Shown here piece by piece: positions 4,944 to 34,695 of a DNA stretch of 64,000 bases. Each line of letters opens with the position of its first letter. Position 1 is the stretch's first letter. Origin of the DNA: a virus (lineage: Duplodnaviria > Heunggongvirae > Uroviricota > Caudoviricetes); IMG/VR virus record IMGVR_UViG_3300031873_001030. One strand, given 5' to 3'. The position numbers and the translations under genes are program-made. The notes under the pieces are model-generated. The model had not been told where the DNA came from, ran no database searches, and worked only from the letters and a program-made list of their open reading frames with translations.

Positions 4944-5016
4944 TGACAACGAACCTCAGAGATAGAACTTACTGATTCTTAGAATCAGTTGGTTCTTACT
5001 GCGAGGTTCGTTGTCA
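4944..5016 (+). ncRNA. structured hairpin element copy A (~73 nt; TGACAAnnAACCTCAGAG...CTGCGAGGTTnnTTGTCA)
   Basis: 13-bp outer stem GACAACGAACCTC/GAGGTTCGTTGTC; 45 nt after ParB-like stop; T-rich tract follows; 3 more copies with compensatory changes. Confidence 0.6.
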
Positions 5017-5432
5017 TAGTTCCTTCCCTCTTCATACTTTCTTTAATATTAGGGAATTTATAAAAACTGTAGGTTTTTATTATGAGATAAGGTTCGGTTG
5101 GGTCAGTTGGGGTGGGTTCCGTTCCGATATGGTATGGTAAGATTATATTTATTGGACGTGGTAGGATAGGGTAGGATGCGATATGGTATTGTTACTTGTT
5201 CCGATATGGTTCGGTGATTTGGGGTTAGGTTAGGTCTGTTCCGATAGGGCAAGGTATGGTATTTTATTTATTCGATACGGTTCGGTTTGGTGGGTTTGGG
5301 TTAGGCAAGATAAGATAGGGTTAGACAAGGTATCTTACTTTTGTATCCGATTGGGTAAGGTCTGGTAGTATTCGGTCCGTTGTGGTTAGGCACGATATGG
5401 TGTGGTAAGGTTTGACATTTATAGTCAGTCAT

Positions 5433-5491
5433 TAACATATGATAAAGAGTTGGACCCAGTGCACGGGTGGCATTCCATTAACATATGTTAA
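5433..5491. repeat. palindrome pair (degenerate TTAACATATGATAA + exact TTAACATATGTTAA) with 31-bp GC-rich spacer
   Basis: Spacer agagttggacccagtgcacgggtggcattcc resembles spacer at 1589..1612 (shared agagtYgg...accc). Confidence 0.8.
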
Positions 5492-5525
5492 TGAGAAAAG
5501 ATAAGAAATAATGTAAAATGATAAT

Positions 5526-5798
5526 ATGAAGAAGATAAAGGAAGAATTTTGCTTTCGCAGGAATGATACTAGAACTTCATATGATATGCAGAAAGGCTAT
5601 CTGATATATGGCAAGATTGATGACATTTATAATATCATCACTTACAATCTATTTGAGATGTGGAATACTACAAAGTGTTTTAAAAGGTTTAGGAAATTGT
5701 TCGTCACTACTTCAAATCACGAATGGATACATTATCTTGTTCCAGATATAAAAGATGGAAGTCTGATGAAGAAGATTGAAAATTGGTTTAACTGGTAA
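5526..5798 (+). CDS. hypothetical protein (90 aa) flanked by 38-bp direct repeats
   Basis: ORF bounded by ccattaacatatgttaatgagaaaagataagaaataatg at 5475..5512 and 5820..5857. Confidence 0.35.
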   Translation: MKKIKEEFCFRRNDTRTSYDMQKGYLIYGKIDDIYNIITYNLFEMWNTTKCFKRFRKLFVTTSNHEWIHYLVPDIKDGSLMKKIENWFNW

Positions 5799-5822
5799 AA
5801 TGTATCGTTAACCAAAATTCCA

Positions 5823-5836
5823 TTAACATATGTTAA
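5823..5836. repeat. TTAACATATGTTAA palindrome within 38-bp direct repeat
   Basis: Exact 14-mer; second copy of direct repeat flanking ORF 5526..5798. Confidence 0.9.
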
Positions 5837-6150
5837 TGAGAAAAGATAAGAAATAATGAAAATCAAAAAGAGGTAAAAAAAATGAGATACTATTGCCGAG
5901 AACATAAGGAAAGTTTTGAGACTACTGTCTGCTTTCTTCAACATGTTCTTAAGGAACACCATAGCATATTTGACATCACAAGTGAATAGATATTTATGTG
6001 ATGAGGTGGGGTCAAGTCAGGTCGGTTCTGGTTGCGATACTGACCTTATCACACCAAACCTCACCTTACCAGGGTTCGATAAGTTGTGATTTGGTAGGAT
6101 AGGGTAAAGTTATTTATATTTGAAACACGTAATTATATGTCAAGGAAGTC

Positions 6151-6224
6151 TGACAACAAACCTCAGAGTTGGAACTTTCTGGTTCTAAAAAATCACTTAG
6201 TTCTTTCTGCGAGGTTTGTTGTCT
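6151..6224 (+). ncRNA. structured hairpin element copy B
   Basis: Outer stem GACAACAAACCTC/GAGGTTTGTTGTC (A-T pair where copy A has C-G); embedded in GGT array. Confidence 0.6.
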
Positions 6225-6948
6225 TTGTATCGACTTTATCATTCGGTCAGGTAAGGCGGGTTCAGGTGGGGTATAGTTTCGGTTCGGTATGGTAGTTTGA
6301 CATTTATACGATACGGTAAGGTGAGGTTTGGAAGATAGTCTTTATGATTCGGTAAGGTGGGGTCAGTTGCGATTGTGTGAGGTTTGATTTGGTTTGGTCT
6401 GATTTGGTAGTTTGAGGCAAGGTAAAGTTAATTCCTTTTATATGATAAGGTATGGTCTAATTCGGTCTGGTTTGGTTGGATGGGCTACGTTCCGATAAGG
6501 TTCGGTATGGTAATATGACACTTATACGATTAGGTTCGGTCAGGTAAGGTTGGGTCAAATGCGATTAGGTAAGATGAGGTTCGGTCAGATACGGCAAGAT
6601 ATGGTATAATATTTATTCGGTTAGGTGAGGTCAGTTTAGGTCTGGTCTGATGTAGTTTGGCATGGTAGTATAACACTTATCGGTTTGGTTCGGTATGATG
6701 CGATATGGTCAGATTCGGTTTGATATGGTAGTATGACACTTATTGGTCAGGTTTAGTAGAATATGGTAAGGTTCGGTTCGATACGGTGGGATATGGTCAG
6801 TTAGGATTTGGAAAAGGAGAGAATAGTTTCAAGAAAGAATCAGCCCTTGGGTGAGTCCCTTGAAATGAAAAATGCCGCACCAGAGATGGTGATATTAGGT
6901 AAACTAATATAAATCAAGGTTCGAACCGTCCGTTAGGCAACGGTTCTC

Positions 6949-7021
6949 TGACAACAAACCTCAGAGTTAGAACTTACTGGTTCTTGAAATCAGTTGGTTC
7001 TTTCTGCGAGGTTTGTTGTCT
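6949..7021 (+). ncRNA. structured hairpin element copy C
   Basis: Same outer stem as copy B; inner region variable; embedded in GGT array. Confidence 0.6.
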
Positions 7022-7667
7022 TCCTCCAAAAAATTACTTATTCGATAGGGTAAGGATAGGTATGCTATGTCAGGGTCAGGTTTGGTTAGGTTTGATATGG
7101 TATGGTAAGGTAATTTAATACTTTTGCTTTGGTGCAATATGGTAATATTCGGTAGGGTATAATTCGGTGGGTTCCGTTAAGGTATGGTAAGGATTATATT
7201 TATGAAATACGTATATAGGAATAGAGATGATGAAAGGGAACTTAAATTTGAAGTTCCAGATAGTATGTCAATAGCTGAAGCATTTGAATTTGCAGAAAGG
7301 AAATGCGCCAGCATGGAGTGATTATAATTTTTGGTCTGGTAGGGTGCGATTAGGTACGATTGGGTTTGGTCAGATAGGATATGATATGGACTATTGTAAT
7401 TTTCGGTTAGGTGCGGTTAGGTCTGGTTTGGTGCGTTCGAGGTGTGGTCAGATAGGATATGGAACTTTCATTCGTACTTTTCGGTAGGGCATTATTCGGT
7501 CCGATATGGTCTGGTCAATTCCGCTCTGGTTCGGTTAGATAGTGTATGGTGATATATGTTAAGTCGTGGTTTGGTTCGGTCTGGTAGAATGAGGTTTATC
7601 TTTTTTGATAGGCTATCGTTCGGTCTGGTGAGGTATGGTTCGGTAGGGTTCGGCAAGGTTTAATCCT

Positions 7668-7702
7668 TTTAGGAAAGGGTCTTTGATTCATTCCCTTTCT
7701 AT
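7668..7702. promoter_or_regulatory. inverted repeat AGGAAAGGG-N13-CCCTTTCT (operator-like, related to 3385..3411)
   Basis: IR GAAAGGG/CCCTTTC ~260 nt upstream of gene 7964. Confidence 0.35.
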
Positions 7703-7711
7703 AAAAGATTT

Positions 7712-7787
7712 ATCCCACGTCTTCGGGATTTATCCCTTCTTTCAGAAGGGATTTATATATCACCGAATCTCGTTTTAAACGAGATTC
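7712..7787. repeat. cluster of three hairpins (ATCCC-N8-GGGAT; ATCCCTT-N7-AAGGGAT; GAATCTCGTT-TTAA-AACGAGATTC) with repeated GGGATTTAT flank
   Basis: Perfect stems of 5, 7 and 10 bp; related ATCCC/GGGAT hairpins at 25707..25723 and 43488..43503. Confidence 0.6.
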
Positions 7788-7963
7788 ACAAAGAACTTGT
7801 GGTCGGGTCTGATACGGCAAGGTGTGATACGGTAAGATAAGATTGGGTTATGGTCTGGCAAGGAACTTTTTACTTATATGGTTTGGCACGGTCCATTCCG
7901 TTGCGTTTAGGTGTGGTAAGGCTTGGTATGGTTACGATTTATTTGGCGTAACATATGTAATAC

Positions 7964-8632
7964 GTGTATTTAAGGTTTCTTATGTATAGTTATGCTATGG
8001 CAAAAGATGAGAATAGGGAAATAAACGTCAGTGGAAAGACAATTGCCTTAATCCTTATGGTAATCATTACAATATTTTCAGTAGGCAGTCTGATAGTAGC
8101 CATAAATGATAAAGGTCAAGCTTCCTCAGATTCAACTAGCTGGCAGAACAAATATACAACTTGCAGTTCTGGATTAAGCTCTTGCAACTCTCAACTAAGC
8201 TCTTCTCAATCAAGCTCCTCTTCATGCGCTTCACAACTCAATACTTGCAATAGCAACCTTGATTATTATCAGAACACAGGAGGAACTTGCAGTTCAGATT
8301 TGAGCAATTGCAATGCCAATTATAATACCTGCAATGCCAATCTTAACAATTATAAGACACTTTATTCTAATTGCGGTGGCAGTCTGACTAACTATCAGAC
8401 ACTTTATTCTAACTGCCAGTCAAGCTATTCTACTTGTAATTCTAATTTCAATACTCTGACTTCCACTTACAATTCTCTGAAGTCAAATTCTGATGTCATG
8501 GCACAGAATTATGCCAGTATGAAATGCTGTCCAAGCTGGCCATCCACCAAATACAGCTATTACTATACAAGCAATGGAAATGTCTATTGCACTGATACAG
8601 CAACAGCAAGCACAAAACTTACAGGATGCTAA
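7964..8632 (+). CDS. secreted/membrane-anchored Cys-, Ser-, Asn-rich protein (222 aa)
   Basis: N-terminal TM helix IALILMVIITIFSVGSLIVAI; repetitive TCNSN/SSC motifs; true start may be the internal Met (MAKDENRE). Confidence 0.5.
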   Translation: MYLRFLMYSYAMAKDENREINVSGKTIALILMVIITIFSVGSLIVAINDKGQASSDSTSWQNKYTTCSSGLSSCNSQLSSSQSSSSSCASQLNTCNSNLDYYQNTGGTCSSDLSNCNANYNTCNANLNNYKTLYSNCGGSLTNYQTLYSNCQSSYSTCNSNFNTLTSTYNSLKSNSDVMAQNYASMKCCPSWPSTKYSYYYTSNGNVYCTDTATASTKLTGC

Positions 8633-8793
8633 ATCATGAGAAAATATACATCCGACAAATGGTTGAAACCTGGTGAAAAATATATCAGCACTGCAGAGAA
8701 AGAACCTGTTCCTAAAAAGAAATATGGTCATGTAGAAATTCCAGATATAGAAGACGATTGATAACTAATATTATAATAGTTTTTAAGTGGTAA

Positions 8794-9276
8794 GTGATGA
8801 GTTACGACGAGACAAGTGATTTAGCATATCTGATATTATTCGTCGGTTGTATAATTGGATTGCTCATACTTATCGTTGGCTTAGTCGGATTTTTCAATCT
8901 TGTCCAAGGATTATATTTTTGGGATTGGTTCATACTATTTATCTTGACATTCCTAGCTTCAGAAGTTTTCTTCCTTCTTGTATTCAAGAAAAAACCGACA
9001 GGAAATGTATTCTGGAAGACATTTGGAAATAAGATTTTATCTTGGATGTCAGGTTCGTTGATAATCGCAGAATTTACTTCTTTCTATTATTACATTATTC
9101 TGAACATAATCAGAGATTGGCTTACCGTATTGGAAGTATTGACTACTATAGGAAAAATAATTGGAATAGGTGTGATGATTGCATCACTTATTGCTTTTTA
9201 CGTATGGTTCAACACTTTGAGATATAAAAATATCAAAGAACCTAAAGGGAAACTTAAAAAAGTATACAAGAGGTGA
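8794..9276 (+). CDS. integral membrane protein (160 aa, ~4 TM)
   Basis: Four long hydrophobic segments; basic C-terminus. Confidence 0.5.
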   Translation: MMSYDETSDLAYLILFVGCIIGLLILIVGLVGFFNLVQGLYFWDWFILFILTFLASEVFFLLVFKKKPTGNVFWKTFGNKILSWMSGSLIIAEFTSFYYYIILNIIRDWLTVLEVLTTIGKIIGIGVMIASLIAFYVWFNTLRYKNIKEPKGKLKKVYKR

Positions 9277-9702
9277 TTAGTTTCTGATAATTACTCAGAC
9301 ATTCACATTCGGACATAGTGAAAATCTTCTGGCAAGGATATTCTCCTCAAGCACAACACTTGCAAGATGCACATTTGTTTTCAATGAAAGACGCATAATA
9401 GAATATTATATCCGTGAAGAATGGGGTGGAAAAATTGCTGATACAAAAACTATTAATGGTTTCATAGACAGATTATGTAGAGACACCACGCATGAATTTG
9501 TTCATGCTCTTGGAAATTGCCATGTGGAATGGGTACCAAAGATGATGGATAGATGGATGAAAAAACGAATCATATATGCACATTCTGTGGGACAAAGGAA
9601 GGACCTATGATACAGTTTGACTATGACGACTGGGAATGTGAAAAATGCCATAGGATGGGAAGACACATATCACGTAAATAAATATGAATATCAAAATCAG
9701 AA

Positions 9703-10209
9703 TTGAAATATATGGAAGGATATAGTGTAAAGATTGGAAAGTGTTGTAATTGTAAAAAGGATATAACTAAAATGGGATTGAAAATAATAAAAGCAGAAGT
9801 TTTCACGAAAGAAGTATTTGACAAGATAATGAAAGGTGATTATATCGAAAATGCTAAGAAAGAGTATGAAAGCTTTTCCAATCAAAATCAGAGAAAAGGC
9901 CAATGGTTGTGGAATAAAATATGGGATAAAGTAGTTGATAAAGCAAAGAGACCAGAGAGTGAAAAAGATATTCTTGAAAATGAACAATTAGTTTCACATC
10001 ATCTATGGACTATGAAAGATTCTGAATTTGATGAGATGATGTCAAAGAGGGTAGATTGTTCTAAAATCTTGAAACTGATTGACGAATTTAGTAAAAAGTT
10101 TGATGTTAAGACTTTAGAATTATGTGGAGAAACTATAGAATATATTCCTATAACAATTGCAGACTGGAACAACTTTAAGGAAAAACTCAAGCAAGAGATT
10201 TTGAAATGA
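9703..10209 (+). CDS. hypothetical protein (168 aa)
   Basis: Intact ORF, Lys/Glu-rich; N-terminal CCNC motif. Confidence 0.4.
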   Translation: MKYMEGYSVKIGKCCNCKKDITKMGLKIIKAEVFTKEVFDKIMKGDYIENAKKEYESFSNQNQRKGQWLWNKIWDKVVDKAKRPESEKDILENEQLVSHHLWTMKDSEFDEMMSKRVDCSKILKLIDEFSKKFDVKTLELCGETIEYIPITIADWNNFKEKLKQEILK

Positions 10210-10332
10210 TGATAACAACAGCAATATTCATATTACTGAAACTTTTTGTAGAGAATAATAGTGTATCTTGGTGGTGGATGTTACTTTTCATACTCTTTGA
10301 TTTGATGATGGTTCTTACTATCAGAGTAGATT

Positions 10333-10524
10333 TTGGAAGATGAAATTATGAGTTATAAATGTGAAAATTGTAAAGGAACAGTTCCAAACTGTATGCCACA
10401 AATAAAGATAATTGTAGAAAAGAGAGATAAGACATATCCGAATGGAAGCATTGGTTGGGAAACAGTCAAAGAGAAAGTATTGTGCAGTTCATGCAATAAG
10501 GATAAAGAGGTCAAAAAATCATAG
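10333..10524 (+). CDS. zinc-ribbon small protein (63 aa)
   Basis: CENCKG...CSSCNKD (two CxxC pairs). Confidence 0.4.
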   Translation: MEDEIMSYKCENCKGTVPNCMPQIKIIVEKRDKTYPNGSIGWETVKEKVLCSSCNKDKEVKKS

Positions 10525-10649
10525 ATTTCAATCAGATAATTGACAAGTATCTGGATAGGGAAAGGAGAGAAAGAAAGATAGGGGAATATTATGTTAGCGA
10601 GATTCCATATTGTTTAAGATTAACTTGGTTTAGATTCAAACAGCCTAAA

Positions 10650-12374: not shown

Positions 12375-12411
12375 AAAGATTGCATGCAGATAACTTCTTA
12401 ACATATGTTAA
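12361..12411. repeat. palindrome pair TTAACATATGTTAA-N23-TTAACATATGTTAA spanning a gene junction
   Basis: First copy holds the stop of 12018..12374; second copy holds the ATG (catATGtta) of 12405..12995. Confidence 0.9.
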
Positions 12412-16499: not shown

Positions 16500-16770
16500 T
16501 AAACCACAGATTACCAGACCATACCCGAACCTATAAGACCACATCACACCTGAGCGAAAAGTGTTAACCATACCACATCAGACTTTATCATGCCTTACCA
16601 GTCCTTAACATATCGTAACTTACCACAACGTAGCATAAATGACAATCCATATCTTACCACACACCAACATATCTTACCAAAACCCACCCTAACCCATCTA
16701 ACCCAATCATAAATATAATCCCTATCTTACCAAATCCCATCACAACGGACCCTACCAAATCAGACCCCGT
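16500..16770 (-). repeat. inverted partial copy of the GGTNN satellite (G-rich strand on minus)
   Basis: ACC-rich on + strand (accagaccatacccgaacc...); the reverse complement matches units of the 5090..7940 array, e.g. ggtaagatagggattatatttatg. Confidence 0.7.
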
Positions 16771-17742: not shown

Positions 17743-18933
17743 ATGACGTTGAAGAATCTTGTAACGCCATTGGAACTTAAGACTCTCTGGGATTCTGAAT
17801 ATTACAAATCAATATTGACAGCTACAGCTAGCAGCTGCCAATTTGGAAGGATAAGAGAACACCAACGTAATAATACATTCAAAGAAATCAGAGCCAATCT
17901 GAATGCTCTGATAGTTGGAGAATATGGAATTGGGAAATCCACAATGTTGGACATTAAGAATGTCCCAATAGTCAGGGCTAATACAGTTTCAGTTGCTGGA
18001 CTAGCTGGAACTACGACAAGAAGTGGGGAACACGTTATTGGAGCTGCATATAAAGCTAATAATAAATTACTAATTATAGATGACGTTGGTAGTGGTGAAA
18101 ATTCTTATATAGATAATTCTGTAAAACGATGCATGAATCTGCTATTGGAACCTCCGCATACTTTTTCACGAATGTTAGGATTTAAGATGAACATTCCTGT
18201 GAAAGAGAAGAAGGGTGGAGCTTGGGTGAAAGGAAGTGAGAATCAGTTTACATTGCGTTCTAAGTTCAGTTGCATCGTAGCTACAACATCAGTTGTAATT
18301 CGAAATACTGATGACAAAGCTTGGATGTCAAGATTCGTACCAGTAAAACTACATGGTAGTGTGGATTACATGTTTGAATTTTTATCTGGTTCTAATCCAT
18401 TTACAATTACTGGTTTGAATCGGAAAGTCAAGTTATTTGAATTTCCAGATTATCTGGAATTCTTGGAATTCTATGAAGAACATTTTCGTGGAAGTCTGTG
18501 GGAGAAAAGCATAATAGAAAAGGAAGATGAAGTCGGTTCTATAGCGAGAAATACTGGTGACTTGGTAAGATTGGCTGCTTTCAATTGCGCTGTCGATGAT
18601 AGAATAAATATAGAATTTGAAGATGCCAAGAAAGTTTTTGATAGGTTCTACAATCAGATATGGTTCAATATCCAAGTTGGACCACTGACTCATGAACAAT
18701 ATAGAGTTCTATTACTTCTCAATAAGAAGTTGACTGAAGATGAGATAGCAGAAACTATACAAAGGTCACAGCCTTACGTATCTAAGATGATAGAGAAATT
18801 TGAAAGTAAGGGAATACTTGTAGACAGAAAAGTTGCGAAAGAAGTTGAAAACTTTAAACAAACTTCATGGGAAAAACTCGAACCACAGCAGACTTTATCA
18901 GAATCTGTAAAGTTAGATGGTAGTCATGAGTGA
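17743..18933 (+). CDS. AAA+ ATPase with C-terminal winged-helix domain (Orc1/Cdc6-like or mobile-element replication initiator)
   Basis: Walker A VGEYGIGKST; Walker B LLIIDDVGSGE; C-terminal wH LTHEQYRVLLLLNKKLTEDEIAETIQRSQPYVSKMIEKFESKGIL. Confidence 0.55.
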   Translation: MTLKNLVTPLELKTLWDSEYYKSILTATASSCQFGRIREHQRNNTFKEIRANLNALIVGEYGIGKSTMLDIKNVPIVRANTVSVAGLAGTTTRSGEHVIGAAYKANNKLLIIDDVGSGENSYIDNSVKRCMNLLLEPPHTFSRMLGFKMNIPVKEKKGGAWVKGSENQFTLRSKFSCIVATTSVVIRNTDDKAWMSRFVPVKLHGSVDYMFEFLSGSNPFTITGLNRKVKLFEFPDYLEFLEFYEEHFRGSLWEKSIIEKEDEVGSIARNTGDLVRLAAFNCAVDDRINIEFEDAKKVFDRFYNQIWFNIQVGPLTHEQYRVLLLLNKKLTEDEIAETIQRSQPYVSKMIEKFESKGILVDRKVAKEVENFKQTSWEKLEPQQTLSESVKLDGSHE

Positions 18934-19099: not shown

Positions 19100-19560
19100 A
19101 TCGGCGCGCGCAAGTTTAACTAAAGCTATTAGCTGATGTGATGAGACTACTATGTAGGAGTAATGCTATATGAAGAACTCTAAGTAGTAAAAATAAAAAA
19201 ATTATATAATATATATATTAGAGTATATGAATGAAATCGTTGTTGGAGTTAAGGCGTAGAATGTCTCCGTTGGGGTAATTCATCTAGTCTGTATAGAGTA
19301 GAGGAAGAATATTCCAAATCGCAGAACATAGAGAGAGAGAGAGAGAAAATCTTGACTTCTTGTTTTGCCAAATGGAATATTTTGCTAGTAGTCTATAAAG
19401 ACTAGATGAACAAGGCTAACGGAGACAATTTACGCCTTCTTTCCAATAACGAAAAACGCAGTTTTTTTGCCAAAAATGATATTGAAAAAAGCCACTTTTT
19501 CGTTGTTTTTTGAAACAGCACTAAATTCATAGACTAGTAGTAAAAAAAACTCAAATTAAG
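19100..19560. other. candidate replication origin / structured intergenic region
   Basis: ORF-free ~720 bp downstream of the AAA+-wH gene. ~166-bp imperfect palindrome with outer IR tgtctccgtt (19262..19271 / 19418..19427) and inner IR catctagtct (19281..19290 / 19399..19408). (GA)8 at 19331..19346 sits between the arms. AT-rich flanks. Confidence 0.35.
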
Positions 19561-24054: not shown

Positions 24055-24100
24055 TGCGTGTGACAGGATTTGAACCTGTAAGGCACTAAGCAACGGATAT
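24055..24100 (-). ncRNA. orphan tRNA 3'-half-like fragment (T-arm ACAGG-TTCAAAT-CCTGT + acceptor 3' strand CACACGC-A)
   Basis: Perfect T-arm and 3' acceptor strand, but no complementary 5' acceptor strand (GYGTGTG) within ~250 nt. Confidence 0.3.
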
Positions 24101-25330: not shown

Positions 25331-25333
25331 AAG

Positions 25334-25437
25334 TACTCCCCGAATGATTCGAACATTCGTCTCTTGGTTTCTCCAAGTTTCAGATTCTTGTTGAAATTAT
25401 CAAAGCCAAGCATCTTTGTCCACTGGACGAGGGGAGT
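25334..25437 (-). tRNA. tRNA-Gln (anticodon TTG) with ~31-nt intron at 37/38
   Basis: Acceptor ACTCCCC/GGGGAGT; T-arm GAATG-TTCGAAT-CATTC; anticodon stem CTTGG/CCAAG enclosing 38 nt (CTTTGA + 31-nt insert); intron contains TCAA complementary to the anticodon region (BHB-like). Confidence 0.6.
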
Positions 25438-25469
25438 ATATTGATTGTAGTTCTTTTTAAAAACTATGG

Positions 25470-25500
25470 ACACAAGCGGGAATCGAACTCGCATCTCTTT
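25470..25500 (-). ncRNA. orphan tRNA 3'-half-like fragment (GCGAG-TTCGATT-CCCGC T-arm + 3' strand TTGTGTC-C)
   Basis: T-arm-like element with one A.C mismatch; no matching 5' acceptor strand found upstream. Confidence 0.25.
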
Positions 25501-25706
25501 CTTGCAAGGGAAGTATCCTACCATTAAACGATTGGCCCGTCATTGAAGAAAAAAGAACTAGCTCTATTGATTTGCCTTATGGGCGGGCTGTTGATTATAT
25601 GCTTCAATAGACATATTAGAAAATTTAGTCTTGATGATTGATTTGATTTTGTATTATGTGATATATAGAATGCAATATATATTTTAGAAGCATTATTTTC
25701 TAGATT

Positions 25707-25723
25707 TATCCCTCTAACGGGAT
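25707..25723. repeat. ATCCC-N6-GGGAT hairpin with GATTTAT/GGGATTTAT flanks
   Basis: Overlaps the stop codon of XPF (minus strand); same motif family as 7712..7752 and 43488..43503. Confidence 0.5.
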
Positions 25724-26358: not shown

Positions 26359-26598
26359 AGTATTATCAGTAATTGCAAAAATATATCTCCGAAATCGGGA
26401 AGGTTACAGATTCACTGGAAACCAGCGAAGCATTGTCGATGCTATGAAATCCTTCCCAGTAGGAGATAAATTTATTTGTGCAGATAATCTTAAATACTTT
26501 AACAACCGATATAATTGTATCTCTCATACAGCTATGGGATTCATAATACAACAACAGGATGTAGTACAGTTTCCGTAGCGATTTTGGAGGGTACATTT

Positions 26599-26859
26599 AT
26601 GGATACCATCACGCTATATATACTTAGAACAAAGCCAGAGACACATTTCTATGTTGGAATTACTAAAGACCTTGATAAGAGATTAGAACAGCATAAAAAT
26701 AATCCAAATGTCTCTTGGGTAAAAAGAAGAAACTTTAAATTTGATTTAGTATGGAGAGAGAAATTTCCTGATTTGAAATCTGCAAGGAAAAAGGAGAAAT
26801 ATTATAAGAAAATGGAAAGGAAAAGACTCTTAAAAATCATTGGGATAAAAGGAGTGTGA
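26599..26859 (+). CDS. small GIY-YIG nuclease-superfamily protein (YhbQ/Slx1-like), paralogue 1
   Basis: LYILRTKPETHFYVGITKDLDKRLEQHK GIY-YIG core; GGAGG SD 9 nt upstream of internal ATG 26599 (track ORF starts 26515); paralogue at 35982..36239. Confidence 0.65.
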   Translation: MDTITLYILRTKPETHFYVGITKDLDKRLEQHKNNPNVSWVKRRNFKFDLVWREKFPDLKSARKKEKYYKKMERKRLLKIIGIKGV

Positions 26860-26863
26860 TGGT

Positions 26864-28279
26864 ATGGAACTAAACAAAGGTTCAAAAAGAACGAGAAAAG
26901 TAATTAATCCTGAAGGTTCTATAGTATTGAAACGTTCAGATGAAATCCAGCTATATCTTGAAGCAAGCAATCTCAACATAAAGGAAGATAAGTTCTATCA
27001 GAGTGCTAAGGACAAGCTGGCAAGCTTGATAAAGATGGCTAGGGAAGCCAATCAGGCATACGTCTTTGGTCTTGGAAGATTCTTAACTGACAACGGATTG
27101 AAACTTTCTCCAGTTGTGTTATATTCAGTACTGTCTGACAGACATGTTCCAATTAATGCAAGTGCAATAAAGACATTCAACACTCCTCAAAGAATAGCAG
27201 AAGCTGTATCATTGCAGAATCTTAAGATAGTTAAATTGAACAACCAATTCAAGAAAAAGATTCTTAAGAAAGCCTTGGAAAACATGTCAGAATTTACTTT
27301 GAGAAAGAACAAGATGCTTAAGAGAAAAGTCAAGGAAAAGGACTTGATTAAACTTTTGAGGCCTAAGCCAGCAAATGCAGAAATGGCAAAGCTATACAAG
27401 GCAATTATAGAAGATGACAAGCTTTCAAAGATGAAGGAGACTGAAACATTTGTAAGAGTGAAGTCTTCAAAAGAAATGAACACTAAAGATAAGCTTGATT
27501 ATTTGACAAATAACGTAGACAGGCTTCCAATAAATGAATTGATAAGAAATCTTAAGTTCATCTCTGAAAATGCAGACTTCAGGAAAGACTTTGAATTGAA
27601 GAGCAAAGTGATAGCAAAATTGCAGAATATAAAGGACATGAGGTTCTTGAACGTTTTTGATTTGATAACCACTGTGGTTTATGTTCCAGACTTCAGCAAG
27701 GCACTGTCAGAAGTTGTAAAGAAATTTTGCGATGATGTTAAAGCTAAGTTTGACTACAATGAAAGTGCAACTGTATTATTTGACTTGTCTGGAAGTATGG
27801 AAGGGGAGGGAATAGAAAAAGGTTTTAAGTACTTGGTACTGTTTGCAAATATATTTGGCAATTTGAAATTGAGATGCTTTAGTGAAGAATTGCTTAAGGA
27901 CACTTACCAGAATGTCATCACTGACATAAATAAAGGAAATTACAAGATTGCATTGAACAAGCTTGACACTATCGGTGGAACTGCATTGCTTGATTCTTTG
28001 GACAAACTTATAGATGAGGGAAAGACTGAATCTAATATAATCATTATAAGCGATGAAGTGAGCTGGCTTGAAGGAGATGACTTGAGTGTGAGAATAAAGG
28101 AAATTTCAGACAAGCTTAAGGGAAAGAAAGTGATACTGGTAAATCCTGTAGTTTATAAGGGAACAGTATTCAGGGACAATATAATTGCATTTGCAAGCCT
28201 TACCTCAAATGTCATTTACAATCTGATGATAGGAACAAAGCCAGAAGCATTTGTAAAGATGATAAAAGAATATAAGTGA
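26864..28279 (+). CDS. von Willebrand factor A (vWA) domain protein with alpha-helical N-terminal region (471 aa)
   Basis: MIDAS motifs VLFDLSGSMEG (DxSxS), GGTALLDSL, IIIISDEVSW; N-terminal ~290 aa Lys-rich helical, TROVE/Ro60-like architecture not excluded. Confidence 0.6.
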   Translation: MELNKGSKRTRKVINPEGSIVLKRSDEIQLYLEASNLNIKEDKFYQSAKDKLASLIKMAREANQAYVFGLGRFLTDNGLKLSPVVLYSVLSDRHVPINASAIKTFNTPQRIAEAVSLQNLKIVKLNNQFKKKILKKALENMSEFTLRKNKMLKRKVKEKDLIKLLRPKPANAEMAKLYKAIIEDDKLSKMKETETFVRVKSSKEMNTKDKLDYLTNNVDRLPINELIRNLKFISENADFRKDFELKSKVIAKLQNIKDMRFLNVFDLITTVVYVPDFSKALSEVVKKFCDDVKAKFDYNESATVLFDLSGSMEGEGIEKGFKYLVLFANIFGNLKLRCFSEELLKDTYQNVITDINKGNYKIALNKLDTIGGTALLDSLDKLIDEGKTESNIIIISDEVSWLEGDDLSVRIKEISDKLKGKKVILVNPVVYKGTVFRDNIIAFASLTSNVIYNLMIGTKPEAFVKMIKEYK

Positions 28280-28299
28280 TAAAAAAGGAAGTGAAATAA

Positions 28300-28844: not shown

Positions 28845-29322
28845 GCAATACAAGATAGTCTATCCAAAAGAGTTTGAGGTCAACGAAACTTGGGGAAAAT
28901 CATTTGTTTTTCCATTTGAACCATTGGATTTGTCAAATAAGCCAGATAGCTTGGGAAGAATTGAGTGGCATATAGAACTTGTAATGGATAAGAAAAAGAG
29001 CAAGGTCAGCAAATCATTTTCAAAATATTACATAAAGGAATTGTGGGTATTTGCCACACAGACAAAAGATAAGAGGTACATAGGTAAAATATTCAAGATA
29101 CCGTGCCATACAGAAACTCTTACTGCTTCTTCTTTCCATCCTGAGGACTATTTGAACAACTTATGGAAATTCACATTCTGCGATGAGCACAAGAACCCAC
29201 TCTTTTCTGCATATCCAAAAGATGAGCACAAATATTTTGTGATTGATGCATCAAGTTCCATTTCAATAGAACCAAAATTCATGTCAAAATTACCTGTTAA
29301 AGATGTACTGCATAAGAGTTAG
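28828..29322 (+). CDS. hypothetical protein (164 aa)
   Basis: Intact ORF overlapping upstream gene (operon-like). Confidence 0.45.
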   Translation: MVMKIKQYKIVYPKEFEVNETWGKSFVFPFEPLDLSNKPDSLGRIEWHIELVMDKKKSKVSKSFSKYYIKELWVFATQTKDKRYIGKIFKIPCHTETLTASSFHPEDYLNNLWKFTFCDEHKNPLFSAYPKDEHKYFVIDASSSISIEPKFMSKLPVKDVLHKS

Positions 29323-29483
29323 AATAAAGTAATGATGTAAAATGTATGTTGCGATATATAATTTCTGAAATCTAAAACAATATTAATCATCTTTCATAAA
29401 TTTTATTCTGCTCCTAAAAGTTTGTCTTAATAAGCTAGCTTTACGGAGTATTTGATAAGTAAGTAAGTAACTAGGTAATAATA

Positions 29484-29903
29484 ATGGATAAGCCTAAATC
29501 AAATGAAGAGGAAAAGTTTGAGAAGGGAGCAGAGGCTAGTTCATCTACCCTTGCTCCTTCTTCAAAATTAAAAGAAGAGAGAAAAATTCCTGAGGCGACT
29601 TTTGTGGTTCCTACTTCTACTATTGGGACTTTTGTGAAGAAGGATGATAAAGACGTTTCATTTCCAGAATGGGAGGGACGGTATAGGAAACGGGCTAGGA
29701 GGCTTGGGATTATTTTCACGGTCTGCTGTATTTTGGCTGTCATTTGGTTGTTATACATTTACATTGCTGGAAACAAGGATGTCCTTAGTACGATAACATA
29801 TACTCTTCTGATGTGGATACTTGTGATAGTGTTCCTGAAGTTTGCTGTGAATAGGAGAGTAAAGCAGAAAGAGAATTCCTATAGAAAGAAAGCGGAGGGC
29901 TAG
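29484..29903 (+). CDS. membrane protein (139 aa, 2 TM) with charged N-terminus
   Basis: TM helices IIFTVCCILAVIWLLYIYIA and TLLMWILVIVFLKFA. Confidence 0.45.
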   Translation: MDKPKSNEEEKFEKGAEASSSTLAPSSKLKEERKIPEATFVVPTSTIGTFVKKDDKDVSFPEWEGRYRKRARRLGIIFTVCCILAVIWLLYIYIAGNKDVLSTITYTLLMWILVIVFLKFAVNRRVKQKENSYRKKAEG

Positions 29904-29905
29904 TT

Positions 29906-30238
29906 GTGGGAAATTACAGATTTCTTATAACTCTTGAGCTCCTTGGGAGATTAGTCTTGGGTGTGAGCTGGCTTATTTTCGTCAGCGCTTTTGTGCGGTT
30001 TGGTGAATATTTTTCGGCTTTTGCGTTTGTAGTTTTTGGATTGTCATCTATCGCAATGGTTTACTGGATGTTCGTTCCATTCTTCATTCCTGTTGCTTTA
30101 TTGACCCCACTGATGGGGTTGACAAGAAAGAAAGATGAGAAACTGGATAGCAGAAGGAAACCAGAGGAATTTTCTGGAATGATACTTTTCAACTTGGCCT
30201 ATGAAAGATTAAAACAGAGAGTAGAGCGAGGTTCATAA
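29906..30238 (+). CDS. membrane protein (110 aa, 3 TM)
   Basis: Three hydrophobic helices; adjacent to preceding membrane gene. Confidence 0.45.
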   Translation: MGNYRFLITLELLGRLVLGVSWLIFVSAFVRFGEYFSAFAFVVFGLSSIAMVYWMFVPFFIPVALLTPLMGLTRKKDEKLDSRRKPEEFSGMILFNLAYERLKQRVERGS

Positions 30239-30241
30239 TCA

Positions 30242-31066
30242 ATGGCTAAACTTACTGCTACTGTAAATGATGTTGTCATGTTCAAGTCTCTTTTTGGTCT
30301 GTTGTGCAGGAATTCTGATATGCTAAAATTTAAAGTCGATAAGGAAGGTATAAGTTCTGTTACTATGCCTGCGGATATGGCGACTTTTCTTAGTGTTTTG
30401 ATAAAGCCAAATTTCTTTGAGGAATGGAATTTTGAAGGTTCGTTCATGTATTGCTATTTTGACCCGCAGCAATTTTCTCGGATGATGAAGAATCTTACCT
30501 CGAAGAAGATTGAGATGGTGCTTGATGAGAATTATATAAATTTCAGTCTTGAGAACGAGGGAAGAAAGAAACATATCTCATTGGTACAGATTACTGGAGA
30601 ATTGTCAGAGCTTCCTGGGAATTTGGGAACTGATTTTGATTTTTCATGGATTATTGAGATAGAGACTTTGAAAAGCATTGTGGATGATATTGTCAATGTC
30701 GATGACAATGCGGATTTGTCTTCCATCTATTTCACATGGGAAAAAGACAGTCTGAAAGTTGAAGCAAGGGAGAGTAAGGTCATGAAGTTTGAGACTATTA
30801 TTGGCCCACCTTTTGTGAAATGTGGTAGCGGGCATTCTTCTTTTAGGACCAATTATTTTTCAAAGATAGTCTGGGCTGGTCTTGGTAAGATTAGATTTTC
30901 AATCTTGAATACTGACGGTCCAGCTTTTATGGAGACTTGTGATGATAGCAAGTTCTCATTGAAATTTATTGTGGCGCCTTTTGTGGCAAGTAATCCTGAT
31001 ATGGATATCACGTCCGAGAATGACGGTAAAAGTTCACAAGATAGTGAGGTGGTAAGTGATGGGTAA
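30242..31066 (+). CDS. pcn: DNA polymerase sliding clamp PCNA
   Basis: Length 274 aa; N-terminal FKVDKEGISSVTMPADMATF aligns with archaeal PCNA FKVTEDGISMRAMDPSRVVL; C-terminal LKFIVAPFV matches the PCNA LTFLLAPRV region. Confidence 0.65.
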   Translation: MAKLTATVNDVVMFKSLFGLLCRNSDMLKFKVDKEGISSVTMPADMATFLSVLIKPNFFEEWNFEGSFMYCYFDPQQFSRMMKNLTSKKIEMVLDENYINFSLENEGRKKHISLVQITGELSELPGNLGTDFDFSWIIEIETLKSIVDDIVNVDDNADLSSIYFTWEKDSLKVEARESKVMKFETIIGPPFVKCGSGHSSFRTNYFSKIVWAGLGKIRFSILNTDGPAFMETCDDSKFSLKFIVAPFVASNPDMDITSENDGKSSQDSEVVSDG

Positions 31067-31520
31067 ATGTACAGCGTGTGGAAAAAACATAGGAATGTTT
31101 GGTAGCAGCAAGTCTTGCGATGCTGAAGATTGTAAAGTTGAAGGTCTGTGCAAGGAATGTTCGTCTGCCAAATTGTCAGACTGCGAAAAATGCGGATATA
31201 CATTCTGCATTGCTCACATAAAAAATCATGAATGCGAAGAGGAAAGTGATAAGGAAGAGAGTGAGGATTCTGAAGATGGAGAAGAGGAGGAAGAGCCTGT
31301 TGAATTGTCTGAAGATGATGTCCATATCTCAAAGGATAAGAAATTTAAGATGCTTCTTTTGGAAGATTACTATAATGAAGATATTGTAAACTTCCTTGAA
31401 GAGACGGAAAAGGAAGGGTATGTGCTTATCGGCACCGATATGGGCAATAGCATGTACTTATTCAAGAACTTTTCTTTAGAAAAGAAAAGTTCACAAAAGA
31501 AAGAAGGAGAAAGTGCATGA
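31056..31520 (+). CDS. zinc-finger (AN1-like C6H2) protein with acidic C-terminal half
   Basis: CKECSSAKLSDCEKCGYTFCIAHIKNHEC pattern; poly-Glu/Asp region. Confidence 0.4.
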   Translation: MMGKCTACGKNIGMFGSSKSCDAEDCKVEGLCKECSSAKLSDCEKCGYTFCIAHIKNHECEEESDKEESEDSEDGEEEEEPVELSEDDVHISKDKKFKMLLLEDYYNEDIVNFLEETEKEGYVLIGTDMGNSMYLFKNFSLEKKSSQKKEGESA

Positions 31521-31556
31521 AGAATCAAGAATCAGAAAATTCTTTGTATACTTTCT

Positions 31557-32483
31557 TTGAAGAAAGTATTTGGAGGTTATAAAGAAATGATAATGACAAC
31601 AGGAAGTTGGATATTGGCAGGATTAGGTGCCTTCATATTCATAATGTTTCTTTCTGGAATAAGGATAGTAAGGCCTTTGGAAAGGGGTTTGGTTGAAAGG
31701 TTTGGTAAGTATCATAGGTTTGCCATGCCAGGTTTCAATTGGATAATCCCAGTATTTGACAGCATGTACAGAATCAACATCACCGAGACTATGGTGAATG
31801 CTGAACCTCAGCAGATTATTACTATGGATAAACTGAATGCCACAGTTGATGCGCAGGTTTATTTCAAGGTAAAAGATGATGAGACTTCTGTGAAGGCTTC
31901 TCAATATAACGTCTACAACTACAGGTACCAGATTGTAAATCTTGCGAGGACTACTCTGAGAAACATCATAGGTACGATGTCCCTTACTGATGCAAATAGC
32001 AAGAGGGATGTGATAAACAAGGATTTGATGGATACTCTCAGTGTCGAGACAAAGAATTGGGGTATACAAGTTGTGAGGACTGAATTGAAGGAGATAGACC
32101 CGCCAGAAGATGTACAAGCTACAATGAACAGGGTAGTGAAAGCGGAGAATGAAAAGATGGCTGCCATAGACTTTGCAACAGCTGCAGAGACTCAGGCAGA
32201 TGGTCTTAAGAGAGCGAAGATAAAGGAAGCGGAAGGTCTGAGGCAATTTGAGATATTGCGTGCAGAAGGTAATAAGCAGGCGACTATACTTGAAGCTGAC
32301 GGAAGAGCTCAGGCTATCAAGCTTGTGAATGAGGCTGCAGAAAAGTATTTCATTGGAAATGCCCAGAAATTGAAGACTCTCGAAGTCACTCAGAGTTCAT
32401 TGGAAAGCAATACAAAAATAATAGTTCCGAACGACCAGAAAATCATAAATGTGATAGGAAACTTAATCGGCGAAAAATTATAG
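31557..32483 (+). CDS. SPFH/band-7 (stomatin/prohibitin-like) membrane protein
   Basis: N-terminal TM then IRIVRPLERGLVERFGKYHRFAMPGFNWIIPVFD...VDAQVYFKV, the classic SPFH core; coiled-coil C-terminus. Confidence 0.75.
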   Translation: MKKVFGGYKEMIMTTGSWILAGLGAFIFIMFLSGIRIVRPLERGLVERFGKYHRFAMPGFNWIIPVFDSMYRINITETMVNAEPQQIITMDKLNATVDAQVYFKVKDDETSVKASQYNVYNYRYQIVNLARTTLRNIIGTMSLTDANSKRDVINKDLMDTLSVETKNWGIQVVRTELKEIDPPEDVQATMNRVVKAENEKMAAIDFATAAETQADGLKRAKIKEAEGLRQFEILRAEGNKQATILEADGRAQAIKLVNEAAEKYFIGNAQKLKTLEVTQSSLESNTKIIVPNDQKIINVIGNLIGEKL

Positions 32484-32564
32484 AGAAACTTTTTCAAAAA
32501 AGTTTCATCAAAAAATCTGTGGTAGGGTTTGGTATATTGATTTTGTTAGTGAGGAGTATATAAA

Positions 32565-32807
32565 ATGACGAAAACAATAGTTGAGGAAAGTGTGATGCCG
32601 CATAAAAATGATTTCAGTTTTGACGAAGGAAAATCTTTTCTTGTAGAGGAATTTAAGATTAATGATAATCTTAGAAGAAGATATGTGAAGCTTATTGACC
32701 AGCATGGAAAATTCGAATTGTCTTTGTCACAGTTCAAATGGATTGTTGAAAAAGTCAATTGCATAGAATCTGAAGTAAATGTATATGAAAAACAATTGAG
32801 ATTGTGA
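32565..32807 (+). CDS. hypothetical protein (80 aa)
   Basis: GAGGAG SD upstream; part of a small-gene array. Confidence 0.35.
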   Translation: MTKTIVEESVMPHKNDFSFDEGKSFLVEEFKINDNLRRRYVKLIDQHGKFELSLSQFKWIVEKVNCIESEVNVYEKQLRL

Positions 32808-33193
32808 ATATGAAAAATATAAAGATAACGACAAAAATTTGTGACAAGCATTTTGCAATTTTGAGATATGAAAGTGATGATATGATTAGTGCGAAGAAGG
32901 TTTTCAATAAGCTGAATTGTAAGTTTAATTTCAAAGAGACTTGGTTCGTATCTGTTGATGGGATGATTTTTTCCATATCTTTCTGCCTTTATACTTGGTC
33001 GAAATACAAGTCGATGATTTATGCAAAAGGTATTTCAAAGAATTTCCGTGAAGGATGTTTGAAGGATAGGTGCGGTTGTCTTGTGTTGAAACCTGGCTGC
33101 AAGTTTAAAGTATTGTACAAATTCAATCAGGAGCGTTCGAATCAGGAACTTAAGAATAGCATTCAAGATATATTAACTAGGAAAGAATTATAA
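32804..33193 (+). CDS. hypothetical protein (129 aa)
   Basis: 4-nt overlap with upstream gene. Confidence 0.4.
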   Translation: MNMKNIKITTKICDKHFAILRYESDDMISAKKVFNKLNCKFNFKETWFVSVDGMIFSISFCLYTWSKYKSMIYAKGISKNFREGCLKDRCGCLVLKPGCKFKVLYKFNQERSNQELKNSIQDILTRKEL

Positions 33194-33195
33194 TT

Positions 33196-33501
33196 ATGGA
33201 GAACTTTCTTCAAAGAAAGTTCACAAAGAAATTGGAGGTAACTGGTATGAGTAAAGAAGCTGCAAGTAAGGAAGATGGTAGAGGAAGAAACGCAGTTTCT
33301 TCCCTAATGCATAAGCTGAAGATGGAAAAAAGATATAAAGGTAAGAAGATTGTTTCGATGAAGGAACGGTTCCTTAAGACTGCGCATCAGAGAGGGAAGA
33401 TGAAAAAAGGAATGACTAAATCCCAGATGAAGAAAGAAATCAAGCAAAGATTAAAAGATAAAAAACCAATATATCAATCAAGGCTTACCGATTATGTTTA
33501 A
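33196..33501 (+). CDS. Lys-rich small protein (101 aa)
   Basis: Highly basic; possible nucleic-acid binding. Confidence 0.4.
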   Translation: MENFLQRKFTKKLEVTGMSKEAASKEDGRGRNAVSSLMHKLKMEKRYKGKKIVSMKERFLKTAHQRGKMKKGMTKSQMKKEIKQRLKDKKPIYQSRLTDYV

Positions 33502-33829
33502 GAAGAAAAAAGTTTCGGCGAGACAGGAAGTAGAAGATATACGGAATAAAGTACATCAATCTGTACATTCTAAAGATAGGATGTCTTTAAAGGAAGAGCT
33601 TGATGAACTTCATGCACAGATACATGAGTCTGGAAAAGTTCGGATGCCTACTAGGGGGGAGATATATGGACATCCAACAAAGCCGATTGGAATCTGCTTG
33701 AAATGCAAAAAGATGTTTCCGACTGAGCAGCTTCAACGTTATTATATAAATCCAGAAGAGTGTTATTGGTTGTGTCCAAAGTGCGGTTTCAAGAAAAGAA
33801 TGAGAGAAAAGTTTTCATCGAGATTATAA
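33494..33829 (+). CDS. zinc-ribbon protein (111 aa)
   Basis: CLKCKK ... CPKCGF. Confidence 0.4.
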   Translation: MFKKKKVSARQEVEDIRNKVHQSVHSKDRMSLKEELDELHAQIHESGKVRMPTRGEIYGHPTKPIGICLKCKKMFPTEQLQRYYINPEECYWLCPKCGFKKRMREKFSSRL

Positions 33830-33878
33830 TTAAGTGATAAGAGGCAATAGAAAGTGAAAGAAGAAATCATTAATTTCT

Positions 33879-34622
33879 TTGTATACTTTCTTTGAAGAAA
33901 GTATTATGATAGAAGATGAAATTATAAGCGGGAGAATTTCTATTGGTCGGGTTGGTATTTATCTTAATGCTAAGACTAAAGGTGGTTACAATATAGGATT
34001 TAATTTTCTTAATAGTCCAGAGCTGAGGACTGCGGGCGTGTGCAATATCACGAAGGACCAGATGTTTATAATGTTTGCTGATTTTGACAATATAGGTTAT
34101 GAAAAACTTAAAGACCAGTTGGATTTCATAAATAGGAATCATGATGTGAGCAATTTTCTTGTTCTTACGACTGGAAAGAATCGATATCATGTGATAAGTT
34201 TTGAAAAATTCTGGAAACAGGAATTAGTTGACATATTGAAGAATACTTTCTGCGATTATACGTATAAAAGTTTTGTTCCGTTGAAAGTTGACAAGGGCTG
34301 GATACTTAGGGTGACTGAAAAGAGGGATTTGGATAATAATGTTGTGAAGGACAGGCCTGAATATGTAGAATCGTTTTCTTATTCTGAAGTCCCTAAGAGG
34401 AGATTGTCGCGTGCTCACGTAGAATTTTTTTCGAGAATGTATCCTGAATTCAGGAAATTTGCAGAGGAGAAGCTTGATAAAAATTATTGGGATGAGTTTA
34501 CTGTGATTCAGCTGCTGAAATATGGGACAAGCCATGAGAATCTTATTGCAAAATTTGACTTGAAGGATTTGATAGATTCCAAGAAGCTTGAAATAGTGTG
34601 GAAGGACAATATATTTGATTAG
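33879..34622 (+). CDS. putative primase-polymerase (AEP/prim-pol-like) domain protein
   Basis: AEP-like motifs: FIMFADFDNIGYE (DxD), TGKNRYHVISF (sxH), VDKGWILRV (D..hR); stop codon abuts hairpin element copy D. Confidence 0.4.
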   Translation: MYTFFEESIMIEDEIISGRISIGRVGIYLNAKTKGGYNIGFNFLNSPELRTAGVCNITKDQMFIMFADFDNIGYEKLKDQLDFINRNHDVSNFLVLTTGKNRYHVISFEKFWKQELVDILKNTFCDYTYKSFVPLKVDKGWILRVTEKRDLDNNVVKDRPEYVESFSYSEVPKRRLSRAHVEFFSRMYPEFRKFAEEKLDKNYWDEFTVIQLLKYGTSHENLIAKFDLKDLIDSKKLEIVWKDNIFD

Positions 34623-34695
34623 TGACAATGAACCTCAGAGTAGGAACCAACTGGAAAGTGGAATCAGCAAGTCATAACTGCGAGGTTCATTGTCA
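34623..34695 (+). ncRNA. structured hairpin element copy D
   Basis: Outer stem GACAATGAACCTC/GAGGTTCATTGTC (two compensatory pairs relative to copies A-C); followed by gcttttatt T-tract. Confidence 0.6.

Follow-up and report, generated by a model that had tools for sequence, protein, structure and literature searches.

The DNA analysed here is a stretch of 64,000 nucleotides (hereafter the window) of the virus record IMGVR_UViG_3300031873_001030, part of a contig of ~92 kb of which ~80 kb was examined (the 64-kb window and ~16 kb more), and our subject is a short hairpin-forming element that occurs in it four times. Copy A (4944-5016, + strand, 73 nt) lies behind a ParB-like gene, copies B (6151-6224, +, 74 nt) and C (6949-7021, +, 73 nt) follow it, and copy D (34623-34695, +, 73 nt) stands far away between two other genes. 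The original prediction, made from the letters alone, had placed four copies at these positions, all on the + strand, and this was confirmed from the sequence. A covariance model built from the four copies and run over the window with its filters off returned exactly these four (99.3, 87.8, 97.2 and 81.0 bits for A to D respectively), whilst the same model gave no match in the additional ~16 kb of the 92-kb contig (L026 and L028). Pattern searches with the two end motifs returned 10 and 9 matches in the window, where shuffled sequence would give 1.8 and 0.8, with every strong match falling in copies A-D and the motifs seen nowhere else in the window; degenerate or solo element ends were likewise absent from the window in both the pattern search and the unfiltered model search. 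The flanks of the four copies are unrelated to each other.

Each copy folds into one long hairpin consisting of a basal stem, a 2x2 internal loop, two base pairs, a second 2x2 loop and an upper stem. The outer stem had been described as 13 bp long, which holds for copies B and C, where the last base is T and leaves a T.T end, whilst in copies A and D it is a 14-bp stem. Minimum free energies (MFE) of the RNA folds, and their z-scores relative to shuffled sequence, were -42.1 kcal/mol (z -10.0) for A, -32.7 (z -7.3) for B, -38.4 (z -9.4) for C and -25.5 (z -4.2) for D, and DNA parameters gave the same hairpins on either strand. The termini form imperfect inverted repeats of 18 nt (TGACAAYRAACCTCAGAG and CTGCGAGGTTYRTTGTCW), 16 of whose 18 positions are complementary; in A and D, both of which have TG...CA termini, the outermost 14 bp are paired without a mismatch. 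Conservation is concentrated at these ends. Over the outer 40 columns of the alignment the copies are 80-100% identical (B and C completely so), and in the inner columns identity falls to 53-61% in comparisons with D. Copy A has the best-kept interior, and copy D, with its ends intact, has a decayed one, 7 of its 16 inner pairs being broken. The asymmetric AGAG/CTGC loop sets an orientation for the element, and this is the same in all four copies, each of them sense to a + strand transcription unit (p ~0.06-0.125 under random orientation). Kink-turn, bulge-helix-bulge and C/D-box readings of this loop were checked manually against the sequence and rejected, the required motifs being absent.

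The differences between the basal stems are mirrored across the hairpin. Pair 1 is C:G in copies A-C and T:A in D, pair 2 is G:C in A and D and A:T in B and C, and the only stem-breaking difference in the basal stem is the terminal T.T of B and C. The variable dinucleotides had been given as AA/TT in B and C, which is incorrect; they are CA/TG there, CG/CG in A and TG/CA in D. The two arms of the hairpin are thus held complementary, and the covariation claimed earlier stands to the extent that two stem pairs change on both sides, but the further step to selection on RNA structure is unsupported. A shuffle control gave 90/500, four sequences being too few for a statistical demonstration, and a rough combinatorial estimate for finding two complete pairs among five variable stem columns was p ~0.02, before requiring that the same copies change and that the new bases be complementary. 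Wobble pairs (five G:U and two A.C in A-C; two G:U and three A.C in D), considered as a marker of the transcribed or folded strand, gave no consistent signal across the copies.

Insertion sites of the four copies

The gene upstream of copy A (4011-4895, +) encodes a protein matching the ParB-like partition proteins of PHROG (E=6e-6), with 12 homologues, some of which carry PF02195. Copies A and D had both been said to lie immediately after stop codons; D does abut one, but A begins 48 nt past the stop codon of the ParB-like gene. The closest relative with a usable contig at this site is L006, whose ParB-like protein is 75% identical, and an affine-gap pairwise alignment of the two loci shows one gap spanning the element (~76-79 bp) with both flanks aligned. 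Where the window reads GGGTT-TAG-[copy A]-TAG-TTCCTTCCC, L006 reads GGGTT-GTTG-TTCCTTCCC, followed by 27 identical bases. The TAG trinucleotides on either side of copy A (4941-4943 and 5017-5019) may, from the sequence and its alignment to the empty site, be the two halves of a 3-bp target-site duplication.

In L006 the empty site is itself a hairpin, with arms GGAAAGUAGAAGCGGG and CCCUCUUCAUACUUUCU (MFE -20.8 kcal/mol, z -4.3). Both arms of this older hairpin are kept in the window, the 5' arm GGAAAGAATGAAGCAGGG at 4921-4938 (+) and the 3' arm CCCTCTTCATACTTTCT at 5026-5042 (+), the latter with a T-rich tail behind it, and copy A occupies the intervening loop, giving a predicted composite hairpin of ~130 nt (-62.9 kcal/mol, z -7.9). 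Since there is a single gap relative to L006 and both older arms are retained around the element, copy A is, as read from these alignments and predicted folds, an insertion of the hairpin alone, placed in the apical loop of a conserved 3' hairpin that is older than it and has a U-rich tail of its own. The pyrimidine-rich block TTCCTTCCCTCTTCATACTTTCTTTA at 5019-5050, which comprises the 3' arm and U-rich tail of that older hairpin, is 97% identical to L006 6621-6652, even though the neighbouring ParB-like proteins are only 75% identical, and is probably the native 3'-end signal of the ParB-like operon. The element is absent behind the ParB-like genes of the farther relatives L007 and L009, and in L009 an unrelated 10-bp hairpin with a U-tract occupies the same slot.

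Copy B stands at the 3' edge of an extra segment of ~820 bp (5412-6232, +) that is absent from L006 and also holds two TTAACATATGTTAA motifs and open reading frames (ORFs) of 90 aa and ~35 aa; the collinear blastn blocks on either side of it, 5331-5411 and 6233-6294, are 820 nt apart in the window and 7 nt apart in L006 (6809-6889 and 6897-6957). Copy C is preceded by an unrelated hairpin at 6923-6946, which ends 3 nt upstream of it, and outer hairpins enclosing the element as at A were sought around B, C and D without success. Copy D lies between a gene of unassigned function (33879-34622, +), whose terminal TAG it abuts, and a gene beginning 44 nt past it (34740-35402, +), which is syntenic with the partner that overlaps the upstream gene in relatives. 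The spacing of these two genes is 117 nt in the window and ~34 nt in L022, and in L023 and L024 they overlap; no hairpin is present at the corresponding site of these relatives, among which the upstream-gene homologues show 74%, 61% and 47% identity. The flanking trinucleotides, TAG/TAG at A, are GTC/TTG at B, CTC/TCC at C and TAG/GGC at D.

Three accounts of the element as a functional site were weighed. The first takes it to be a repeated stem-loop of the 3' untranslated region (UTR) or intercistronic RNA, acting as terminator, attenuator, 3'-end protector or processing site and spread by recombination in the manner of the promoter/stem-loop cassettes (PeSLs) of T4-type phages; it is the main rival of the reading preferred below, and we regard it as possible, though unlikely. 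All four copies are sense within + strand transcription units, A and D come after stop codons, the RNA folds are very stable, copies A and B lie at indel boundaries relative to L006, as PeSLs do between related genomes (PMC2839356), and in L009 the slot behind the ParB-like gene holds a hairpin and U-tract, unrelated to the element. Like PeSLs (PMC2839356, PMC4122927), these are repeated intergenic stem-loops of a large virus, found at indels in a variable region rich in small ORFs; PeSLs, however, are composites of promoter and terminator with loosely similar stems and roughly 50 copies per genome, and here there are four near-identical hairpins, one of them inside another hairpin, with no demonstrably linked promoter.

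The terminator part of this account fares poorly. For copy A it is unlikely because an older hairpin is already present: the ParB-like operon has its own conserved hairpin and U-rich tail, and A merely lies in its loop. For copy D it is unlikely because the copy sits inside a conserved gene pair whose members overlap in relatives, a setting in which strong termination would do harm. T-tracts had been reported after both of these copies; TTTT does follow the stem of D by 4 nt, but A is followed by the pyrimidine-rich block instead, B weakly by TTT, and C by CTTCCTCC and then A6, so that a U-tract is found after D and, weakly, after B. A terminator scan detected the inner part of A alone among the copies, intrinsic-terminator-like sites are not enriched in the genome (13 found, 8.4 +/- 3.2 expected), and the wobble pairs, as described above, carry no consistent strand signal. 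Archaeal termination is generally considered to depend on oligo-T and not on a hairpin, which weighs further against a terminator at these sites. The earlier suggestion of a terminator or 3'-UTR role is therefore a weak one, on account of the operon's own hairpin and of the overlap of D's neighbours in relatives.

In a second account the element acts as DNA, double-stranded or cruciform, to which a virus protein binds, for instance as a site of the ParB-like system, centromere-like or related to replication. Three of the four copies do stand no more than 2.1 kb downstream of the ParB-like gene, in a region of (NNGGT)n arrays of a kind also found behind the ParB-like genes of relatives, and the conserved part is a 14-bp inverted repeat. 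Nonetheless, relatives with the same gene and arrays are without the element, D is elsewhere in an unrelated position, a site bound by a dimer needs no mirrored substitutions, and the arms are ~59 bp apart from centre to centre, a spacing unlike that of any palindromic partition site known to us, and we consider this account improbable.

The third, that the element is a single-strand recombination site of the attC kind, marking gene cassettes at their 3' ends, was suggested by an imperfect inverted repeat in the attC size range that lies 3' of genes or small-ORF modules in one common orientation, by copy B closing an inserted module of ~820 bp and by mirrored changes that conserve structure. 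We hold it to be barely plausible: the R''/R' core motifs RYYYAAC/GTTRRRY are absent from the arms, there is no integrase or tyrosine recombinase among the 61 ORFs of the window, A is an insertion of the hairpin with no cassette, and the copies are scattered with no array.

A candidate mobile foldback repeat

The reading that we prefer, at about an even level of confidence, is that copies A-D form a lineage-specific family of foldback repeats of 73-74 bp, non-autonomous mobile DNA resembling MITEs (transposable elements of the miniature inverted-repeat type) or the REPINs (hairpins formed by doublets of repetitive extragenic palindromes) of bacteria. It is best explained as an addition to this known class, the foldback or MITE-like repeats, very small and specific to one lineage. 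Conserved ends enclose a decaying interior, orthologous sites in relatives are empty, the insertion at A is clean, the sites are intergenic and no RNA family matches the element; the genome also carries other selfish genes, of GIY-YIG and several HNH endonucleases. A MITE-like element was among the roles offered in the original prediction, and it is to this that the evidence points. Its leading suggestion, a family of structured non-coding RNAs, is not borne out, with no Rfam match, no homologue in the collections scanned, absence from orthologous sites and a simple insertion at A.

The mirrored substitutions, from which selection on structure had been argued, are no proof of an RNA gene, because they are also common in mobile REPINs, where compensatory changes across the hairpin are frequent (PMC3116915). 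The element may be moved by an enzyme encoded outside the ~80 kb examined, and it may be copied, repaired or recognised as a single-stranded foldback, as has been proposed for REPINs; identical changes in both arms suggest that such copying, repair or recognition would keep the arms complementary. The foldback-DNA and cis-acting RNA readings are moreover not mutually exclusive, as a sense insertion gets transcribed as a stable hairpin whatever moved it. All copies being sense inside transcription units, they would also be transcribed as very stable RNA hairpins, and these would probably protect or attenuate mRNA 3' ends, either as a side effect or through later co-option.

Comparison with known elements gives a mixed but coherent picture. 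The element resembles MITEs in being short, non-coding, intergenic and multi-copy, in its conserved terminal inverted repeats, variable interior and foldback structure, in its presence or absence between genomes and, at one copy, in a 3-bp flanking duplication. It differs from them in that 73 bp is at the small end of their size range, the duplication is found at one of four copies, no parent insertion sequence (IS) sharing its ends was found, and its end changes are mirrored, which the end recognition of an ordinary DDE transposase does not need. The TG...CA termini and 3-bp duplication recall what we take to be the ends and target duplications of IS3-type elements.

With REPINs (PMC3116915) it shares a hairpin of ~70-110 nt whose two inverted ends are conserved and whose spacer is less so, changes that compensate across the hairpin, extragenic location and a presumed action as a single-stranded foldback; REPINs, in contrast, are bacterial, occur in tens to hundreds of copies and are accompanied by a RAYT gene, whereas the present element has four copies, is not accompanied by a Y1 transposase in the ~80 kb and probably has an archaeal host. 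Targeting of palindromic hairpins has been described for insertion sequences of five families (PMC1525189), and copy A, in the loop of a pre-existing palindromic hairpin, recalls these (IS1397, ISKpn1, IS621 and others); they are, however, full-length bacterial elements encoding a transposase, and loop targeting is seen at one of the four copies here.

Several observations weigh against mobility. There are four copies only, with a flanking duplication at A alone; no transposase, Y1/HUH, Y1_Tnp or integrase domain was found among the 61 ORFs of the window, nor is there a known autonomous partner, further end motifs being absent from the window and from L026 and L028. The indel at B is not a simple insertion of the hairpin and could reflect recombination between repeated spacer units, and all four copies follow the local direction of transcription, a hint of an orientation-dependent role. 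It is because of the few copies, the single duplication, the missing transposase, the shared orientation and the lack of any copy elsewhere that we go no further than the even level of confidence given above.

The last of these points comes from searches well beyond the contig. Rfam gave no match at the copies at gathering or permissive thresholds, exact-pattern scans of IMG/VR gave none, protein-guided searches of IMG/VR with two upstream genes and the Ro60 homologue described below retrieved no relatives, and BLAST of the region against GenBank phages found no match. A pattern scan of the JGI metagenomes returned four matches, all judged to be due to chance because they are without the extended stem. 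In GTDB genomes there were five matches, all to one MITE of ~78 bp in metagenome-assembled genomes of 'Ca. Kuenenia stuttgartiensis' (L017 1005-1082, L018 304-381, L019 7595-7672, L020 148-225 and L021 355-432), with ends CAGGCTGACAAAGAACCTC and TTA/TAA flanks, one copy of which interrupts an IS630-like transposase gene. This MITE has in common with the window element the stem TGACAA-NN-AACCTCA only; its ends are 5 nt longer and its interior is unrelated. The likeness is probably a coincidence, since the hairpin needs only ~11 matching bases, but it could reflect related end-recognition sequences. No credible copy was thus found in IMG/VR, the JGI metagenomes or GTDB genomes, which counts against a mobile element, and consequently the case for mobility rests on presence and absence in comparison with a few diverged relatives and not on observed movement.

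Small foldback repeats are well known in bacteria and have rarely been documented in archaeal viruses or plasmids. This is an unusually legible case, in which a hairpin alone has inserted in the loop of another, older one, a relative has the empty site and the ends carry mirrored substitutions, and it cautions against reading an RNA gene from nothing more than compensatory changes in a multi-copy hairpin. More interesting leads than the hairpins themselves may be the Ro60 family with the YrlA-like RNA of L029, and the pentamer arrays which, together with the 14-bp palindrome, organise the variable region, all described below.

The Ro60 homologue and Y RNAs

A protein of 471 aa encoded at 26864-28279 (+), with TROVE and vWA domains, had been noted for its Ro60-like architecture, and the hairpins had on that basis been considered as possible Y-RNA-like partners. 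The protein matches the Ro60 homologue of Thermus phage phiLo (phiRo60; PDB 9KOP/9L5Y) with E=3e-6 as a single sequence, and a family profile of 38 members matches phiRo60 over its full length with E=1.6e-27. There are ~95 homologues (P0023-P0118) on contigs of up to 106 kb, and the Pfam TROVE model does not detect this family. Judged from the profile comparison, the 471-aa protein is a true Ro60/TROVE homologue. That part of the idea consequently held good, whereas the hairpins do not behave as Y RNAs.

The phage protein phiRo60 binds short hairpin RNAs with a stem joining the 5' and 3' ends, an internal loop and a 5'-proximal CGAA (PMC12135203), and the bacterial Ro60-binding motif is GNCGAAN0-1G (PMC4201824). 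On this basis the hairpins might be Y-RNA-like partners of the virus Ro60 homologue, comparable to the single-hairpin Yrl RNAs of ~60 nt to which phiRo60 binds, an interpretation that we judge very unlikely; that they are short, dispersed and fast-evolving ligands of this kind which in addition spread as a mobile foldback is equally hard to credit. If true, this would be the first pair of Ro60 and Y RNA in an archaeal virus, with an RNA partner that is not beside the Ro60 gene. The genome does encode a true Ro60 homologue, the element has a 5'-3' stem with internal loops, of the kind that phiRo60 binds with a 5'-proximal CGAA (PMC12135203), CGAA is present at nt 7-10 of copy A, and no YrlA-type RNA that might fill the role was detected in the window. 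The length of the element, too, is near that of phage Yrl2.

Against this, CGAA occurs in copy A only (CAAA in B and C, UGAA in D), where it is fully paired and not in a bulge, and GNCGAAN0-1G is unmatched in the hairpins. Known Y RNAs are adjacent to their Ro60 genes, but here the gene is separated from D, downstream, by 6.3 kb and from A-C, upstream, by about 20-22 kb. The element lacks a tRNA-like domain, neither the Y_RNA nor the YrlA model of Rfam matches (E<=10 around the copies, E<=1 over the whole window), and it thus differs from Y RNA, YrlA and phage Yrl RNAs (PMC4201824, PMC12135203) in motif, domain content and location as well as in its absence from relatives with Ro60 homologues. 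At four such relative loci (L029-L032) the model had no match within +/-10 kb of the Ro60 homologue, and the JGI-wide scan for the hairpin core gave chance matches only, though many Ro60 homologues sit on JGI contigs. What L029 has near its Ro60 gene is instead a YrlA-like tRNA mimic, whose end lies 35 nt upstream of that gene (9901-9966; a partial match, 36.5 bits, E=4e-6, from the same search that was null in the window). Finally, the insertion polymorphism of the element argues against a conserved partner RNA, and a mobile foldback repeat remains our preferred explanation of the hairpins.

Several observations were made in passing around these genes. In L029 a series of repeated structured modules (9540-9900) stands just before the YrlA-like match. 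In the window, 1.3 kb from the Ro60 gene, there is a degenerate tRNA-like sequence on the - strand (25425-25580, core 25468-25538; Rfam tRNA 37.5 bits) with two acceptor-stem mismatches, not called by ARAGORN and enclosed by a long-range A/U-rich stem of 10-11 bp; its layout loosely recalls YrlA, and its fold is no better than that of shuffled sequence (z 0.14). Another motif resembling a T-arm is present at 24065-24077 (-).

Genome context and other repeats

The window has ~36% G+C, its genes are mostly on the + strand and GC skew follows gene direction. The ~92-kb virus or extrachromosomal element that carries the hairpins has archaeal hallmarks, and its host is probably an archaeon. The pointers are a nuclease of Hef/XPF type that, among annotated proteins, best matches those of Methanobacterium viruses, regulators of the TrmB/Lrs14/MsvR types and a tRNA with a 31-nt intron in the anticodon loop. 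This tRNA (25333-25437, -) was found by the intron mode of ARAGORN only, and its short intron is of archaeal type; it would be tRNA-Gln (UUG) if the intron is at the canonical position 37/38, and a UAA suppressor (anticodon UUA) in the ARAGORN parse. Relatives encode a family-B DNA polymerase, thymidylate synthase and RNA ligase, and no close relative of the window was found among GenBank phages, PLSDB plasmids or IMG/VR.

The 'GGT satellite' in which copies B and C had been said to lie is real and is a degenerate pentamer array, (NNGGT)n, present at 5088-5410, 6000-6110, 6240-6800, 7040-7200, 7340-7930, 35419-35493 and 41696-41759, with a reverse-complement ACC array at 16500-16770. Spacings from GGT to GGT peak at 5, 10, 15, 20 nt and so on, and the pentamers form blocks of ~10-13 units with AT-rich spacers between them, for example GACATTTATAC or GACACTTAT. 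The G-rich strand follows gene direction, and the arrays behind the ParB-like genes of relatives (L006 6660-7340, L007 4010-4240 and L009 9950-10448) are alike in kind but not in sequence. They may bind a protein, work as a promoter-upstream element or form a centromere-like region.

The 14-bp palindrome TTAACATATGTTAA has fourteen exact copies in the window (starting at 700, 988, 1575, 1613, 2314, 2359, 2425, 2491, 5478, 5823, 12361, 12398, 24416 and 24466) and is also found in L006 (6977-7035 and 7568-7672). The copies are often paired, 35-65 nt apart, and often stand ~30-45 nt upstream of start codons, and the palindrome is probably an operator or promoter motif of a regulator that the virus or extrachromosomal element itself encodes.

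Further features of the window were noted. An inverted repeat of 92 nt (19237-19328/19361-19452), whose arms are 76% complementary and 32 nt apart, lies just downstream of a gene (17743-18933) for a P-loop and winged-helix protein with weak MCM and MarR matches and an Orc1/Cdc6-like layout, and it is possible that the repeat (19237-19452) is a replication origin. GIY-YIG domains are present in two ORFs, one of them (26515-26856, +) directly upstream of the Ro60 gene, and several ORFs have HNH endonuclease matches and one a match to Cas4-like/PD-(D/E)XK nucleases, a notable load of homing-endonuclease type. A tandem repeat of 24-nt units at 42934-43157 is intergenic or antisense, and in-frame repeats with units of 75 nt and 102 nt (51738-52937 and 62757-63969) lie in a 3752-aa DUF285 gene and in an ORF running off the end of the window.

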